Positions 1 to 5,442 are shown, counted from the first letter of the stretch. The stretch: DNA of 5,442 nt from an uncultured archaeon (GCA_964354495.1 CAYHAA010000044.1:1-5442), one strand, 5' to 3'. Notes: generated by a model not told the origin, from the letters alone. Numbers and translations: made by a program.

Positions 1-1871
1 TGACCAAGAGCCTCACGTCTATAACGCACGCCCTCGATCATCATCCCCCACAGGTTAGCTGAAAGATTCCAGCTATGTCTTTGCATTCCTCCCTTTCCTT
101 GGAACGAACGAAGGTCTTCAAAGTAGATGGTCTTCACACCATGCTGTTCACAGAACCACACGGTCTCAGCGGCGATCTGATGGGAGATCTCCTTGTCTAG
201 GCGACGGACTTTCTGCCACACTGACTCCAGCTCCTGTTCCTTCTTGAGGATGATAGCTGGAGGCTGCTGCCTAGCATGTTTCTTCTCCCAGTTGTTGCGC
301 TTTCTCGCAATCTGTGACATTAGAACTCTGGTTTCTTGTCGCAATCTCTCTCGCTTTTCAAATAGCTCCTGTCTTCCTATCATGGTCTCCTCGTAGGTAC
401 CATCCCCATTCTTGATGGATACTACCATCGAGTGCCTGAGTCCCCTGTCAACACCAGCCCTTCTCTTTCGGGTAGATAGCACTGGAAGGGTGGTCTTCAG
501 TAGGTCCTCATCAGGGGACATGAAGGGTATGTTCAAGGTGACTCTCTTTCCTTCAATCTTGACCAGTGGTGGTGCTGACCTTCTCGATTTCTTCAGCTCA
601 AATGCAATTTTCTTCAAATCGTGAATTCGAATCTCATTCTTCTCTGGTTGAACTCGTTCTCTAGCAAGCTCACGGGTGAACTGCTGAATCTTTATTGTAT
701 TCTCTAATTGGTTACTCATGTCCTCAAAACATGCAGCTCGATAGTCAAGCTGCATAGCTCGTTGGATATGACCTTGTGCTCTTGCTTCCTGTGCCTTTCT
801 CCTTGCTCTTGCAGCCTTTCTAGGAAGCCAGTTCAAGAATCTCAGTCGTACTGTCTGACTCTTGTATGGTGAAGGAGTATCTTGTTCATGACCTACTATT
901 CCCGGAGGGGTCTTGATGTAGAGAATGATCTCATCCTCTCTCTCTGGGTCTTGCTGGAACCAGTACCCCTGACCAGTGGTGTTCTCTGTAGAGGCTGCAA
1001 AGTCCACTGTATGTTTCTGGAAGGTTGGATTGATGAATGGAAATCCAATCTTTTTCCATGCTTTGACTTGCTCAATAATCAATGTCTGAGTTCTCAATCT
1101 ATCTGGAGATTTTTCATCTAGTAGCTCCCGAGTACTTCTCCGCTCATCTTTCTCTGGTGGATAAGCTTCACGTACCTTTGACCTCAGAGCACTCTTCACC
1201 TGTCGGCAGGCTGAGAGAGCATAGTGATAGGAACCATTAGACTTCTTCTCAATGGCGTCTTTTACTCTTCGAATGATGTCTGATGGAATCCTTCTATTCT
1301 TCATCAGTCGCATGAGTTGTTCATCATCAGATGCAAGGATGTCTAGTAGTGAATTCACGAGTCTTCGACGAGTATAGGTAGCAAGTATGATTCGAGCTGC
1401 GGTCTCAAGGGCGTTACGATATAGTCTTTCATATACAAGTTGTCCAAATTCGTTCTCAGGTTCCCATTTGAGCCGTTGTTCTTTTCGTAGGACCAGATAT
1501 ACCATTCCTCTACAATCATCTAGTTCTTCTCCCAGCATACTCAAATAAACAGAGTCAGCAAACGCCTTTTCCAAGATTAGATTCACTACTTTTCGATAGC
1601 TATTGAAACTCTGAGAGAGAACTGAAAAATCCAAATTGCTACATTTACGACCACTGAGTTCCCGAAGCATATCAGATGGAACAACAGTGGTTAAAGGTCT
1701 TCTATCCAGTCCCTTACGAGCTACAACTCTAGAGTACGAATTCAAGGCGAACTTTTGGACAAGAAGAGTCGATGATGGGTAACTTAAAATATCGTCCATT
1801 GTTTTTTGCGCTGGTTTTACATGAGTAGGAACCATCTGCTCGCGGGGACGACGCCGCGAATCTTTCTTCAT
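1..1871 (-). CDS. tnpB: Large TnpB/Cas12-like RuvC-domain RNA-guided endonuclease (3'-truncated by the window edge; >=623 aa)
   Basis: Manual translation gives a stop-free frame from ATG at 1871-1869 to the window edge: MKKDSRRRPREQMVPTH...RAGVDRGLRHSMVVSI...VWQKVRRLDKEISHQIAAETVWFCEQHGVKTIYFEDLRSFQG...LWGMMIEGVRYRREALG. RuvC-I GVDxG Asp is D475 (codon 449-447). A basic bridge-helix-like segment follows, then RuvC-II hhhEDL Glu E585 (119-117), then a Wxxh...hxY helix typical of TnpB/Cas12f. N-terminal TnpB-like motifs FNSYRKVVNLIL (aa 89-100) and GFPFINPTF (aa 276-284). GGTGA Shine-Dalgarno 7 nt upstream. The symbol is family-level only; TnpB versus Cas12 cannot be decided from this window. 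Confidence 0.88.
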   Translation of the reverse strand, partial: MKKDSRRRPREQMVPTHVKPAQKTMDDILSYPSSTLLVQKFALNSYSRVVARKGLDRRPLTTVVPSDMLRELSGRKCSNLDFSVLSQSFNSYRKVVNLILEKAFADSVYLSMLGEELDDCRGMVYLVLRKEQRLKWEPENEFGQLVYERLYRNALETAARIILATYTRRRLVNSLLDILASDDEQLMRLMKNRRIPSDIIRRVKDAIEKKSNGSYHYALSACRQVKSALRSKVREAYPPEKDERRSTRELLDEKSPDRLRTQTLIIEQVKAWKKIGFPFINPTFQKHTVDFAASTENTTGQGYWFQQDPEREDEIILYIKTPPGIVGHEQDTPSPYKSQTVRLRFLNWLPRKAARARRKAQEARAQGHIQRAMQLDYRAACFEDMSNQLENTIKIQQFTRELARERVQPEKNEIRIHDLKKIAFELKKSRRSAPPLVKIEGKRVTLNIPFMSPDEDLLKTTLPVLSTRKRRAGVDRGLRHSMVVSIKNGDGTYEETMIGRQELFEKRERLRQETRVLMSQIARKRNNWEKKHARQQPPAIILKKEQELESVWQKVRRLDKEISHQIAAETVWFCEQHGVKTIYFEDLRSFQGKGGMQRHSWNLSANLWGMMIEGVRYRREALG

Positions 1872-1878
1872 CGACACT

Positions 1879-1883
1879 TCACC
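1879..1883 (-). promoter_or_regulatory. Archaeal-type Shine-Dalgarno GGTGA for the TnpB/Cas12-like gene
   Basis: Plus-strand tcacc at 1879-1883 reads GGTGA on the minus strand, 7 nt upstream of ATG 1871. Confidence 0.6.
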
Positions 1884-1903
1884 AAAGTATTTTCTTGACC
1901 AGG

Positions 1904-1911
1904 ATATATAA
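1904..1911 (-). promoter_or_regulatory. Putative archaeal TATA box (TTATATAT) of the TnpB/Cas12-like gene
   Basis: Minus strand reads TTATATAT from 1911 to 1904, about 33-40 nt upstream of the ATG. This predicts a TSS near 1880-1885 and a very short leader. Confidence 0.55.
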
Positions 1912-1931
1912 GCCCATACTACGTATGGGCT
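1911..1931. repeat. Perfect 9-bp inverted repeat AGCCCATAC-tac-GTATGGGCT
   Basis: 1911-1919 agcccatac is the exact reverse complement of 1923-1931 gtatgggct, with a 3-nt spacer. The arms are GC-richer than the surrounding AT-rich spacer. Function (operator or IS-end hairpin) is unknown. Confidence 0.9.
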
Positions 1932-1933
1932 AC

Positions 1934-1941
1934 TTAATATA
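1934..1941 (+). promoter_or_regulatory. Possible plus-strand TATA box (TTAATATA), mirror of the minus-strand TATA across the palindrome
   Basis: TTAATATA lies directly right of the inverted repeat. It is >110 nt from the nearest plus-strand ATG, so it may be chance in AT-rich DNA. Confidence 0.3.
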
Positions 1942-2043
1942 CCAGAGTTAATGATTAGATGATTATTTGATACTCCAAAATGAATTAGATGGAGAAAATA
2001 ACCTAAGATAAGAAGACCACCCTAGAAATAATACTCCTAAAAT

Positions 2044-2057
2044 ACAAAGATAAATAT
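2044..2057 (+). promoter_or_regulatory. Possible BRE/TATA (acaaaga-TAAATAT) for a leaderless transcript starting at ATG 2083
   Basis: An A-rich BRE-like run is followed by TAAATAT at 2051-2057, 26-32 nt upstream of ATG 2083, typical archaeal leaderless spacing. No clear SD precedes either ATG. Confidence 0.35.
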
Positions 2058-5000
2058 GAAACTGCTGAGATATACTAGTGCGATGGCTCAATCAAGAGGA
2101 CGCCCAGTAAGACCAATACCTGTACACCCAGAGCGGGTGATATCGAGGGCAGTGAAGGCGGGACTCTCAGCCACCATCAGGCTACAACGAAATATTGTCA
2201 ATAAGAGGACAAAGAAATACTACGAACGTTCGTTCAATAACTGGAGTATCAGGCAACAGGTCTATCGAATCACAAAGGAACGAGGAACTCCAGATTTCTC
2301 TCACGTCAGTAAGGCAGAGGCCTCTATCAGAGATAACACACGACTGATGTTCTTTGAGAACGCAGCCAAGTATGGTTTTACTGAAGTCAGTAGACAGAAG
2401 AATGCAGACGATACCGTTTCTCCTCTCAACCAACGGTTCAATGCATGTGGTGCAGTTGTCCGAGAGAACTCCGAGATCATGTTCCCTTTCCCGGAACCAG
2501 TGAGTTTTGGGACACACACCAGACGACACGGTAAAGCCAGAAAGGAGTATAGACGCGCAGGATATGATGGGTCATCTTTTGCACCTCAGGTGATTCTTGC
2601 TCATCCAGACCTTCCCTCACTTGACTTTGGTGATGCTGTTCGTAGCCATAATGAGTATCTTTCGACCTTCTGTGCAATCCATGATGTTCCCGTGAAAGAA
2701 ACTACCAATTATAGTCACCTCTTCTACTTGCTGACTCGTCCATATCTGGAGCATCTCTATTCGGAGTTCAAGTGTGGCAAGGCCAACTTCCAGAAGGGCG
2801 TGAACTGGGCACTCCGCCAGGTCAAAGAGTTGATTCTTGAGGCGGGATATCAACCGACAATGTATAGTAAGCAGACGGTGACCAAGGAACGTGAGTTCGA
2901 AGAGTCAAAGAGTAAGGAGGAGAACAAGACCTTCTTAAAGAGAAATGAGAGAGCGGCAAGAGAGTTCTATGGGAATCATCCTGCAGTTGCTGAGCTTAGC
3001 AGGTTGAGGGGGATACTTGGGGATGATAAAGACACCATTGATGAGAAGAACAAGACTAGTGAAGAAGCCACGAAGGAAGATGATGATGGATTATTCACAT
3101 TACAGGATGTTGGATATATCAGGAATGAGGTGGCAAAGAGAGCACGAGTTGCTGGCTCGATTATGCACCGGAGAATAGCAGCTCTCTTCCCCAGCCCCTG
3201 GCATCTGAACGATGTCATTTTCTCAGGGGACAAGTACGCTCGTTCCTCTGACTATATCATCATCTCGGAGGTTCCCTTGCAGACATCATATGGAGCAGGT
3301 AAGGTGGACCTCATTCTCTGTGAGCGGACCATCAGTAATGATGGAAAGCAAGTCTTCTGGAGACCTGTCTTTGTCCTTGAGATCAAGACTCGGTTAGGAC
3401 AGAGCTGGTATGTTGATGCAAACTACAAGGAGTCAGAGGTCCGTCCTGATGGGAGTCCCCTTCAGCGAGTTGTCTGTGAGTTTCCACTCAGTGACTATCC
3501 CCTCAGTGACAATCTATGGGATGCCATTGTGAAGTCAACACCAAGCATTACTGCACAGAAACAGTTGGATGTCTATTGTCAAGCGCTCAGTGAGAATTAC
3601 AGAGATGGAACACAACAGGAATTGGGGCATATATTGAGGGGAGTTGTGGTCATTGAGTCCGCCTCTGACATTACTGAGATACGAAGAGTGCTGGAACAGC
3701 TCATTGTCCATGGATATGAGTCTGTGAAGAGTAGAGTCCGTAGGATTAAACGTACGGTCTTCACACCACCTGAGAGGGATAGTAGTCGTATCGCATTAGT
3801 CATGGATGGACAGCCTGGTCCTAATAGACAGGATGATGAGATGATTCAGGCTCCATGGGGTCCAGCCTACACTCCATTCAATGCCAAGAAGAAGACCAAG
3901 AGAGAGTTTCTGCTCTATGTTACTGGGCATTCTCCAACCTCTGCGGGACAGTCTGCGGCCTGGAACGCACGATATTACCATGGTCTACAGTTCCTGCATG
4001 AGATGAAGAAGACACAGGAGAATACTGAGTTTGTATGGGTCGATTTGGCAAGTCAGTTCAATGAACCTCGACTTGCAGAGGCACGCCTGCGTCTGCGACC
4101 ACGGGGGTATGCTGAGGAAGAGCTAGCCAAGGTCCAACCTGACCACATTCGAGAGTTCTTCGAGAGTATCAAGGTTAAGGGATACTTGGATGAAGTCTTG
4201 TCATTCCTGTACAGAGGCAGAGAAGTACCATCCTTTGAACTGAAGTTAAAGAAGAACAAGAGAAAGGTGATTGTTGTCACTGGGGCAGACACAATTCGTG
4301 ATGCCACTCCAACCTCTCATAGAACACGATTCTCTGAGCTCATAGACTATCTACTGAGTGGTCTTCCTGATGATGAAAAGACCACTATCGTGTGGTTCGA
4401 CGCTCCAGTCCCCTCTGTTGAGAAGTCTATTCCCTACTCAACCAGAGCTCTCAATCCCTACTATGATATATCCCCCTTGAGAGATGTGGTGACGGAGATA
4501 GTCTGGAATCTCCCAATTGCACCTAAAGGTGCTGTGCAACCCGAGAAGTGGGGACTCCCCATCATCGGTGATGCGCCCATGCATGATGATATCAGAGTCA
4601 TCATTAGACATTCTCCAACTGAGTTTCAGATAGAACTGATCCATGCTCCTCTCTTGCGAGGCTGGTCAAAGAGGTTCAGAAACAAGGGGACTGGGCGAAT
4701 CATCCGAGAACGAGAGTTGGATGATATAGTTCCTGATAAGACAGTACGGAATCGAATGAAGCTCCTCTCCCTGACCATGCTCCCTTGGCTGGTGAAACTC
4801 CAGTCAAACAAGACCCTAGTTGAGGACTCCATAGAGATCCTTCAAGAGCAATTCTCTCATCTAGAGAATGAGTTTCGCAGAGGAACGGAACCACTGGATA
4901 TTCTAAGGACTGTTCTTACTGAACCACCCTGCACCCCTCCCAGTTTGCTTGATTTAGTTAGATTCAGACTCCCAGCTGCCATGGATGCACTGTCCTATCA

Positions 5001-5442
5001 AGCTATGACCGCAGGGAAGATAAATTCCCAACGCCTCTATCGTTCTCCACGGAAGATACAGACTCAACCGGTTCAGGTAGTTCCACCATCTTCTCCAACA
5101 CAAGAGGCACCAATCATCGATAAAGATACACTAGAACATGAGTGGTTGTTTGGTGTCAAGTTCGAGAGCGACAATCAAGATATTCATTCCTGGTGGATGG
5201 TGGTTCAAGACCCCACCCATCCAGCAAGGATGCTCGTTGGTTGTTTCTCTGATGGGCCACCGGACAAGGATGGATTCCTCTGGGCCGAGAATAGGCACGA
5301 GATACTGACACAGTCCAGTCTGGATGAGATGCTCAGTTCCCTTCAGACCACAATGATTGGGAGGAAGACTGAGGAAGGACTAGAACTGTGGCTCTCCAGA
5401 GACTGTGAGGAGGCAGTCTATGCAGGGATTCTTGAGGTGAGG
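2056..5442 (+). CDS. Large multidomain protein: unknown N-domain + PD-(D/E)xK (RecB-like) nuclease + inactivated RadA/RecA-fold domain + unknown C-domain (3'-truncated; >=1129 aa from ATG 2056, 1120 from ATG 2083)
   Basis: Frame +1 is open from ATG 2056 (in-frame TAA at 2038-2040 upstream) to the last base, with no stop. Translation begins MKLLRYTSAMAQSRGRPVRPIPVHPERVISRAVKAG and ends ...RDCEEAVYAGILEVR. The start could be 2056 or 2083. Domain motifs are listed in separate features. Confidence 0.93.
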   Translation, partial: MKLLRYTSAMAQSRGRPVRPIPVHPERVISRAVKAGLSATIRLQRNIVNKRTKKYYERSFNNWSIRQQVYRITKERGTPDFSHVSKAEASIRDNTRLMFFENAAKYGFTEVSRQKNADDTVSPLNQRFNACGAVVRENSEIMFPFPEPVSFGTHTRRHGKARKEYRRAGYDGSSFAPQVILAHPDLPSLDFGDAVRSHNEYLSTFCAIHDVPVKETTNYSHLFYLLTRPYLEHLYSEFKCGKANFQKGVNWALRQVKELILEAGYQPTMYSKQTVTKEREFEESKSKEENKTFLKRNERAAREFYGNHPAVAELSRLRGILGDDKDTIDEKNKTSEEATKEDDDGLFTLQDVGYIRNEVAKRARVAGSIMHRRIAALFPSPWHLNDVIFSGDKYARSSDYIIISEVPLQTSYGAGKVDLILCERTISNDGKQVFWRPVFVLEIKTRLGQSWYVDANYKESEVRPDGSPLQRVVCEFPLSDYPLSDNLWDAIVKSTPSITAQKQLDVYCQALSENYRDGTQQELGHILRGVVVIESASDITEIRRVLEQLIVHGYESVKSRVRRIKRTVFTPPERDSSRIALVMDGQPGPNRQDDEMIQAPWGPAYTPFNAKKKTKREFLLYVTGHSPTSAGQSAAWNARYYHGLQFLHEMKKTQENTEFVWVDLASQFNEPRLAEARLRLRPRGYAEEELAKVQPDHIREFFESIKVKGYLDEVLSFLYRGREVPSFELKLKKNKRKVIVVTGADTIRDATPTSHRTRFSELIDYLLSGLPDDEKTTIVWFDAPVPSVEKSIPYSTRALNPYYDISPLRDVVTEIVWNLPIAPKGAVQPEKWGLPIIGDAPMHDDIRVIIRHSPTEFQIELIHAPLLRGWSKRFRNKGTGRIIRERELDDIVPDKTVRNRMKLLSLTMLPWLVKLQSNKTLVEDSIEILQEQFSHLENEFRRGTEPLDILRTVLTEPPCTPPSLLDLVRFRLPAAMDALSYQAMTAGKINSQRLYRSPRKIQTQPVQVVPPSSPTQEAPIIDKDTLEHEWLFGVKFESDNQDIHSWWMVVQDPTHPARMLVGCFSDGPPDKDGFLWAENRHEILTQSSLDEMLSSLQTTMIGRKTEEGLELWLSRDCEEAVYAGILEVR
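3154..3660 (+). other. PD-(D/E)xK / RecB-family nuclease domain within the large plus-strand CDS
   Basis: Ordered motif set, numbered from ATG 2056: G367-SIM-H371 (GxxxH helix); E405 (ISEVPL); G-K-V-D418-LIL; VL-E442-I-K444-T; Q503-L-D-V-Y507 (QLxxY); then hydrophobic strand LRGVVVIE. This matches the established RecB/AddB/Cas4-type PD-(D/E)xK signature with all catalytic residues present. Confidence 0.85.
3907..4656 (+). other. Degenerate (probably ATPase-dead) RadA/Rad51/RecA-fold domain
   Basis: FLLYVTGHSPTSAGQS (Walker A position, Lys replaced by Q632). FVWVDLASQFNEPRL has the same D,+5F,+9R,+10L spacing as Rad51 YIDTEGTFRPERL, with the catalytic Glu replaced by A665. KVIVVTGAD (Walker B position, Asp replaced by T742). 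PIIGDAPMHDDIRVIIR...IELIHAPLL resembles the archaeal RadA C-terminal core PIGGHILAHSATLRVYLR...IARLIDAPHL. Aligned by eye against remembered sequences. Confidence 0.62.

Follow-up and report, generated by a model that had tools for sequence, protein, structure and literature searches.

A Thorarchaeal aCas1-TnpB Locus as the Probable Central Part of an IS607-Family Transposon

The TnpB proteins of IS605 and IS607 elements have an established role in which they cut sites that are free of the element, so that recombination restores it there. Asgard archaea reportedly carry loci in which a tnpB gene accompanies a gene called aCas1 (Makarova et al. are said to have treated them in CRISPR J in 2020), and to our knowledge aCas1-TnpB elements are known from computational surveys only. 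The subject of this report is one such locus, a stretch of 5442 nucleotides (GCA_964354495.1 CAYHAA010000044.1:1-5442; “the window” below) that is the entire contig C44 of G000, a Thorarchaeota (Asgard) metagenome-assembled genome of 3.3 Mb in 51 contigs with a completeness of 97.7%. It holds a truncated tnpB gene and a truncated, divergently oriented giant aCas1 gene, and we place at roughly 70% the probability that it is the central 5.4 kb of an ~8-kb IS607-family transposon in a three-gene form that would operate by the mechanism proposed below.

Altae-Tran et al. (2023; PMC10691335) distinguish two groups of Asgard TnpBs associated with “aCas1”, Cas1H-Asgard-1 and Cas1H-Asgard-2, and describe a hypervariable stretch, followed by GTTCACTCA, behind the tnpB gene of aCas1 loci; the paper states that aCas1 replaces the serine recombinase and, citing Makarova 2020, infers that it is the likely transposase. 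An earlier interpretation of the window made without database searches (the sequence-only reading) recognised no named system with such an architecture and advised that the literature on Asgard loci with Cas4-like and TnpB-like genes be checked. That check was run, and the loci match aCas1-TnpB, Cas1H-Asgard-1 and -2; GTTCACTCA is moreover present behind tnpB paralogues of G000 (below). The window is thus an aCas1-TnpB locus of a type already described from Asgard archaea, and the view that it had no named counterpart is not sustained. The linkage of such elements to IS607 is possibly a new detail.

The gene pair and its IS607 context

The two long head-to-head open reading frames (ORFs) previously described in the window are confirmed (3..1877, minus strand, 625 codons, and 2056..5442, plus strand, 1129 codons), and both are cut by the contig edges. 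The TnpB-like protein had been called oversized and its partner longer than 1100 residues; these are values for genes that are truncated here, and in the window's clade the full lengths are ~1650 residues for aCas1 and ~700 for TnpB. Homologues of the window's proteins carry the name Candidatus Thorarchaeota. Their closest relative is locus L082, whose aCas1 and TnpB are 78% and 88% identical to those of the window, the latter over residues 2–620 of a 698-residue TnpB. Residue numbers below are those of the window's TnpB (P0001) and aCas1 (P0002) unless the L082 aCas1 (P0055) is named.

By its profile matches and catalytic residues the minus-strand gene is a large TnpB, and the TnpB/Cas12-like identity first proposed for it holds. 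The truncated protein matches NCBIfam guided_TnpB (NF040570) with an E-value of 3e-7 (30 bits; cut-off 100) and Pfam OrfB_IS605 under its cut-off, and the RuvC-I Asp and RuvC-II Glu are both present. Three further features would fall outside the window, past its base 1: the third Asp of the catalytic triad, the zinc finger, and the right end, which includes the guide-RNA scaffold. Full-length paralogues of 712 and 721 residues have the complete D-E-D triad, a CxxC...CxxC motif and Pfam PF07282 (Cas12f1-like_TNB, the zinc finger), which full-length paralogues match at 45–54 bits (cut-off 26.3; E 1e-11 to 1e-14); in P0004 and P0005, both of them full-length paralogues, the third RuvC Asp stands within HAD[VI]NA. 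On NF040570 the TnpB paralogues score 58–94 bits (cut-off 100).

The adjacency of aCas1 and tnpB is a conserved functional pairing. All seven giant-gene copies in G000 whose 5' end is present (on contigs C1, C3, C6, C17, C27, C31 and C44) have a divergent TnpB gene 150–270 bp upstream, as do 25 of the 25 loci in other genomes that have upstream sequence (five further loci without TnpB end at a contig edge and were left out of these 25). Within the window's clade (aCas1 proteins of ~1650 residues, 48–78% identity) the pair is present in 7/7 context-distinct metagenome loci (six proteins looked up), in different housekeeping neighbourhoods. The head-to-head co-occurrence across genomes that had been suggested as a check was therefore found in every testable locus, and it persists at protein identities down to 22–26%. 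Comparison of the window with four relatives gave ratios of nonsynonymous to synonymous substitution (dN/dS) of 0.10–0.17, so both genes are under purifying selection. Since the pairing is without exception in the three sets of loci it is not due to chance, in agreement with the earlier claim that it is more than an accidental adjacency. Of the other genomes in the taxonomic family, 57 of 85 contain the aCas1 protein family, which is rare elsewhere in the phylum.

The IS607 connection comes from outside the window. In L082 a 200-residue gene begins two bases past the aCas1 stop codon, on the tnpB strand, and its product, a serine recombinase with an N-terminal MerR-type helix-turn-helix (HTH), matches the IS607 transposase family NF033518 at 176 bits (cut-off 110). 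In G000 this tnpA gene is found on contigs C22 (88% identity) and C24 (85%), where it adjoins 3' parts of aCas1 genes; the statement that no TnpA is in view is therefore correct for the window and does not hold for G000, in which tnpA stands in the matching position on other contigs. The order on C22 is aCas1 residues 1223–1654 and then tnpA. Residues 1–1120 of P0055 are 78% identical to the window, and its residues 1223–1654 are 81% identical to C22:1-1296; because the window stops at residue 1120 and C22 opens at residue 1223, C22 is probably the continuation of the window's aCas1 gene after a gap of ~100 codons. Across the taxonomic family, where a full-length tnpA homologue has enough flanking sequence, the 3' end of an aCas1 gene lies convergently behind it in 15 of 17 loci, which belong to several aCas1 clades.

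Both ends of the element can be recognised by comparison of copies. On the left, ~75 nt upstream of tnpA are common to L082, C22, C24 and C46, and beyond them the four flanks are unrelated. On the right the boundary is sharp in at least 12 copies, whose flanks diverge right after …CGG. A protein-less mini-element of ~480 bp on C46 (~2531-3013) consists of the left end, tnpA codons 1–46, tnpB codons 615–698 and the right end. Internal deletions have also left a copy on C24 (10745-13864; L011) with tnpA, the last 313 aCas1 codons (residue 1343 to the end) and tnpB codons 189–698, and one on C7 (24394-28546; L010) in which aCas1 from residue 416 to its end is fused to TnpB from residue 575 to its end. 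Right-end fragments are dispersed over genomes of the genus. The pair thus sits within transposon ends together with an IS607 tnpA gene, which disagrees with its interpretation as a stand-alone two-gene module. Insertion sequence (IS) ends and many unrelated contexts, which had been named as signs of a chance insertion of tnpB, were found for the aCas1-tnpB pair as a unit and not for tnpB alone.

Copies of the window's clade that lack tnpA retain 17–120 nt of its 3' end and have no left end, which indicates that they derive by deletion from tnpA-bearing elements. In these tnpA-less, left-end-less copies both long ORFs are intact. Two of them from different metagenomes (L087 and L089) adjoin the same ribosomal-protein/eIF-6 gene cluster, as might be expected if the pair, immobilised but intact, had long been inherited vertically. 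For the tnpA-less class-A copies (C3, L046, L052 and L062) no consistent left end emerged; their candidate direct repeats of 7–40 bp vary by copy. The C3 copy is inserted in a tRNA-Lys(CUU) gene, within its 5' end, and is bounded by CCACCAG(CC) direct repeats of 7–9 bp; the congeneric genome G344 supplies the empty site, an intact multi-intron tRNA-Lys gene with the same upstream flank at the position of the C3 insertion. Beside the C3 copy there are also an inverted, intron-containing, complete tRNA-Lys gene (missed by ARAGORN) and a 4.4-kb insert.

The ~85 nt that lead up to the right-end boundary, a region outside the window, have a conserved fold in 12 right ends of the window's TnpB class; the consensus has 39 pairs, ten of them with compensatory changes. 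Its hairpin core CCAG/CTGG is present in five to six compensatory variants, and in the closing helix GTTCA pairs with the terminal TGAAC. The right end of the ~700-residue TnpB class is a conserved …ACAATGAACGG, beyond which all copies diverge. A TnpB guide-RNA scaffold whose guide is read from the flank would be expected to have such a structure. No Rfam family was matched in the window or in the guide-RNA region. A look through sequencing runs listed no RNA run, and the best DNA run contained 0.21 of the words. GTTCACTCA is found ~97 nt past the stop codon in a different, ~557-residue TnpB class that includes the copies on C6, C17 and C27 of G000, and it is absent from the ~700-residue class of the window (the corresponding region lies outside the window). 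Elements of the ~557-residue class are flanked by direct repeats of ~50–75 nt that contain a tRNA 3' end and run into GTTCACTCA (G000 C27 ~7100-7255 and 14290-14370; L053). The “hypervariable” stretch pairs with sequence just past GTTCACTCA as covarying stems (CACAGT/ACTGTG in C17, for example), and because of this covariation the published hypervariable stretch may be a hairpin and not a guide.

Domains of the giant protein and the divergent promoter region

The aCas1 structure was modelled by AlphaFold from 39 homologues (predicted local distance difference test score, pLDDT, 70). No cas1 gene had been thought to be in view, which proves wrong in substance, since residues 19–250 of the model take up the fold of the Cas1 catalytic domain. 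They match Cas1 8flj_A with a VIA Z of 13.0 (root-mean-square deviation 3.5, 175 residues aligned) and 4n06_B and 4w8k_A with 12.2 each; nine more Cas1 or casposase entries are at Z 8.8–10.3 (casposase 6opm_A scores 10.3 and 8d3p_A 8.9), and all span model residues 15–254. For a helical domain a Z near 13 borders on chance helical matches, and the argument is the consistency across the Cas1 matches. The family conserves E88, N125..Y/G, H183 and D190-xx-D193..R196, which are collinear with the Cas1 motifs E, NxxLxYGY and H...LDxxExFR; hhalign aligns these motifs weakly with those of Asgard Cas1s (E 0.002–0.005, probability 6–7%). The structural matches begin at Cas1 residues ~80–131, and aCas1 opens with the helical domain and has no N-terminal beta-strand domain. 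Canonical cas1 is absent from G000. The array search found no CRISPR array in the window, as had been claimed, and no Cas2 turned up there, although no search was aimed at Cas2.

The description of the rest of the protein as a PD-(D/E)xK nuclease joined to a pseudo-RadA domain was right. The nuclease residues D418, E442-x-K444 and Q503-xxx-Y507 are invariant across 39 family members, the predicted topology of residues ~350–560 is alpha-beta-beta-beta-alpha-beta, and the neighbours of this domain in ESM features belong to the PD-(D/E)xK clan only (scores 0.80–0.90). Fold searches with the whole model were filled by matches to its Cas1 and RecA domains. Residues 614–866 have a RecA-like fold (Foldseek E 3e-4 to RAD51 paralogues, KaiC and DnaB; VIA Z 10.8) in which the Walker A consensus GxxxxGK[ST] is replaced by GHSPTSAGQSAA (family consensus SGxGSPxQSAA), so that the Walker A lysine is missing. 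A tandem duplication of 15 nt, in frame, is present within the aCas1 coding region at window positions 3483-3514 (…PLSDYPLSD…).

The C-terminal half, of which the window holds the beginning, was modelled from a full-length paralogue (P0003:950-1800) as a confident fold with a pLDDT of 87. Against the PDB its best scores were VIA Z 6.2 and Foldseek E 0.016, and it has no solved structural relative there; against the AlphaFold database it matched uncharacterised proteins only. A second Cas1-like helical match in this half (Z 5.1–5.3) was too weak to claim. Free-standing ORFs of ~420–560 residues match only positions ~1165–1580 of the aCas1 profile (G313:C4:34322-35443, G316:C116:2082-3254 and G368:C1:1975900-1976937), uncharacterised AlphaFold database proteins of 440–520 residues resemble the same module, and the module may also exist as an independent protein family. 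Pfam and NCBIfam searches with the giant proteins matched no family, and a PDB sequence search with the giant-protein family profile found nothing meaningful.

The region between the two genes was given earlier as a 184-bp spacer with a central palindrome. The value of 184 bp is obtained only if position 2056 is taken as the aCas1 start; start codons in relatives support ATG 2083 (MAQSRGRP) for aCas1 and ATG 1871 for tnpB, and the spacer is then ~211 bp. The palindrome is real and stands off-centre, 40 bp from the start of tnpB. Six of the seven loci in the window's clade retain it, with loops that vary; it shows one symmetric compensatory change (CCCGTAC/GTACGGG in L089) and is absent in the other clades. 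A TATA-like TATATAAG stands beside it on the tnpB side, and a AAAGATAAATA box lies ~27 nt upstream of the aCas1 ATG. Probably the palindrome acts as an operator, or forms a hairpin, at the putative tnpB promoter. A second guide directed at the element's own promoter was considered and is not supported here, as right-end/guide sequences and intergenic regions of five clade elements share no match of at least 11 nt; the C24 and C46 right-end/guide regions likewise have no match of that length in the window's intergenic region. Table 1 collects the features.

Table 1. Features of the window and the tRNA-Lys insertion site of another G000 copy
Feature	Position	Strand	Basis or remark
tnpB	3..1871	minus	5' 623 codons of ~700-codon gene; cut by contig end
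RuvC-I Asp477	447-449	minus	P0001 numbering
RuvC-II Glu587	117-119	minus	P0001 numbering
Divergent intergenic (promoter) region	1872..2082		211 bp between homology-supported starts
Palindrome AGCCCATAC-tac-GTATGGGCT	1911..1931		9-nt arms, 3-nt loop
Conserved non-coding block TTACCAGAGTTAA..TTTAGATGATTATTTGATA	1937..1977		alignment of 7 clade intergenic regions
aCas1 giant gene	2083..5442	plus	first ~1120 of ~1650 codons; ORF open from 2056; cut by contig end
Cas1-like catalytic alpha-helical domain	2110..2805	plus	residues 19-250 of P0002; VIA-align, hhalign motifs, conservation
Cas1-like conserved residues	E88 (2317), N125 (2428), H183 (2602), D190 (2623), D193 (2632), R196 (2641)	plus	
RecB/Cas4-like PD-(D/E)xK nuclease domain	3103..3735	plus	residues ~350-560
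PD-(D/E)xK residues	D418 (3307), E442 (3379), K444 (3385), Q503 (3562), Y507 (3574)	plus	
RecA/RadA/KaiC-like fold	3886..4665	plus	degenerate P-loop GHSPTSAGQSAA without Lys; Foldseek, VIA
Beginning of aCas1 C-terminal half	4843..5442	plus	~700-850 residues in full-length relatives
C3 copy tRNA-Lys site	L009 (G000 C3:72000-88000) 4887-5035, 12804-12830		G344 counterpart L078 (C29) 127-267

Proposed mechanism and rival readings

The full element would have the order left end, tnpA (encoding the 200-residue serine recombinase), aCas1 on the opposite strand, the 211-bp promoter region, tnpB, and the right end with the guide-RNA scaffold. Excision and integration would be the work of TnpA, where present. 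TnpB would be loaded with an RNA from the right end, its 3' part read from the flank, and would cut those copies of the site that have no element, whereupon recombination would restore or spread the element. From its domain set, aCas1 could be an accessory DNA-processing enzyme that acts on the element ends or on the break made by TnpB, combining a Cas1-type transesterase, a RecB-type nuclease for trimming and an ATPase-dead RecA-like scaffold. The shared promoter region, with the clade-conserved palindrome at the tnpB promoter, would co-regulate aCas1 and tnpB. TnpB may mark a target that its partner resects, as the sequence-only reading proposed. Both genes remain intact in copies without tnpA and the left end, so the pair presumably also serves a role without a transposase of its own.

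Several results weigh against this interpretation or against the domain assignments that it uses. Neither an element end nor tnpA is inside the window, and the link between C44 and C22 comes from matching identity levels and complementary coverage, with no overlapping sequence. The tnpA gene is present in 23 of 86 genomes of the taxonomic family versus 58 of 86 for aCas1, so that most copies lack it, and the tnpA-less copies still occupy differing contexts, which means that aCas1 itself could be the transposase, as published. The assignment to Cas1 rests on the fold match of the helical domain and the motifs; Pfam Cas1 (PF01867) gave no match at E≤1, and a profile of the Cas1-like domain run against 1.84 billion proteins gave 138 clusters that are all long aCas1-type proteins or fragments, with no canonical Cas1 among them. 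Pfam searches with eight excised nuclease domains found nothing at E≤10, which leaves the PD-(D/E)xK assignment without support from hidden Markov models. Lastly, the comparison of the divergence of the two genes that had been proposed bears out their association in part: TnpB and aCas1 identities are correlated (Mantel r 0.40; none of 2000 permutations as high), but nearest neighbours agree in just 11 of 26 cases. With a correlation that is only moderate, strict co-diversification of the two genes is borne out in part at most, and partners have been exchanged between lineages. Between the window and L082 the synonymous divergence (dS) is 0.77 for aCas1 and 0.36 for tnpB, a twofold gap that suggests recombination between elements.

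The strongest rival, which we nevertheless consider unlikely, makes aCas1 the transposase of a casposon-like element built on Cas1 and assigns the IS607 tnpA beside some copies to a separate, secondarily associated IS. This is the published inference (PMC10691335), and the Cas1 catalytic fold with its E/H/D motifs, the prevalence of tnpA-less copies in differing neighbourhoods and the CCACCAG repeat around the C3 copy, which is of the kind that a staggered integrase cut would leave, are all in its favour. It has more difficulty with the position of tnpA within a left-end boundary common to four copies, with the mini-element that joins the head of tnpA to the tail of tnpB between the same ends, and with the convergence of tnpA and aCas1 in 15/17 loci across aCas1 clades; the tnpA remnants in clade copies that lack the left end mark these copies as deletion derivatives, and no casposon-type terminal inverted repeats were noticed. 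Because tnpA, aCas1 and tnpB share IS607-type ends, aCas1 appears to be carried by a serine-recombinase system and not substituted for it. Within an IS607-type element it is thus probably cargo or an accessory enzyme and not simply a replacement transposase, and the IS607 transposase inside many copies argues against the published idea of such a replacement.

A rather doubtful extension is that aCas1 is more than a simple transposase or inert cargo and couples the RNA-guided cut of TnpB to the joining or copying of DNA. The element would then be an archaeal system for RNA-guided homing or insertion, complete in itself. The coupling might then proceed by Cas1-type integration or by RecB/RecA-like end processing at the site specified by the guide, and such a system would explain why the pair remains intact after the loss of tnpA and the left end.

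We think it improbable that the pair is instead a domesticated, non-mobile host module for defence or guided recombination, in which TnpB would locate targets for degradation or processing by the giant nuclease. Purifying selection on two intact ORFs in copies without tnpA or left end, the conserved promoter palindrome and the location of L087 and L089 beside the same ribosomal-protein cluster, which suggests long vertical residence, would fit such a module. The window's own lineage, however, has an intact tnpA, both ends and mini-derivatives in G000, where the family is multi-copy (at least seven giant-gene copies with a 5' end, plus fragments), and right-end fragments are scattered through the genus. 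A chance adjacency of an IS-borne tnpB and an unrelated giant gene has only the general mobility of tnpB to recommend it and is refuted by the synteny counts, head-to-head pairing being found in every testable case at identities down to 22–26%.

The TnpB partner, a protein of 1650–1900 residues, has a defined layout in which a Cas1-type catalytic domain is followed by a RecB-type nuclease, then by a dead RecA-like fold, and finally by ~800 confidently folded residues without a solved relative. If aCas1 does link an RNA-guided cut to DNA joining, it would offer a new means of programmable insertion and add a new branch to Cas1 history; failing that, a common insertion sequence would simply be carrying cargo of unusual size.

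Comparison with known systems

Among systems with related parts, the type V-K CRISPR-associated transposons (Cas12k-CAST) resemble the present element in that a TnpB-derived RNA-guided protein is genetically coupled to DNA-integration machinery. CAST elements, however, are of the Tn7 type with TnsB/TnsC/TniQ, a nuclease-dead Cas12k and a CRISPR array, whereas the TnpB of the present element keeps its RuvC residues, no array accompanies it, and guided integration would be speculation only. Cas4-Cas1 fusions and Cas4-Cas1-Cas2 complexes share with aCas1 a Cas1 catalytic domain together with RecB/Cas4-type nuclease motifs (8d3p_A is the relevant structural match, above). They differ from it in that the domain order of aCas1 is reversed and no Cas4 cysteine cluster was noticed in it, and they differ from the locus in that the window contains no CRISPR array and G000 lacks a canonical cas1. 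Casposons are likewise mobile elements that carry a Cas1-fold enzyme, and casposase 6opm_A is among the matches of the aCas1 model; aCas1 differs in being without the Cas1 N-terminal beta domain and in that only the first ~250 of its ~1650 residues are Cas1-like, and no family B polymerase or terminal inverted repeats were noticed here.

The likeness to IS607 is closer. The 200-residue MerR-HTH/resolvase TnpA is above the NCBIfam cut-off, tnpA and tnpB are on the same strand, the ends are asymmetric, the right end is structured and stops at the flank, and mini-derivatives join the tnpA head to the tnpB tail. The differences are of size and content: IS607 is compact, whereas here tnpA is separated from tnpB by 5 kb of oppositely oriented aCas1 gene, TnpB is ~300 residues longer at its N-terminus, and the element is ~8 kb versus ~2 kb long. 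From the published aCas1-TnpB loci the window departs in two respects, in that its ~700-residue TnpB class ends in …ACAATGAACGG and has no GTTCACTCA, and in that an IS607 tnpA is inside the element in many copies whereas the published aCas1 replaces the serine recombinase. It agrees with them in its Asgard host, in a large Cas1-like protein that adjoins TnpB and in its multi-copy, repeat-flanked occurrence, and the ~557-residue TnpB paralogues of G000 add the same hypervariable stretch followed by GTTCACTCA.

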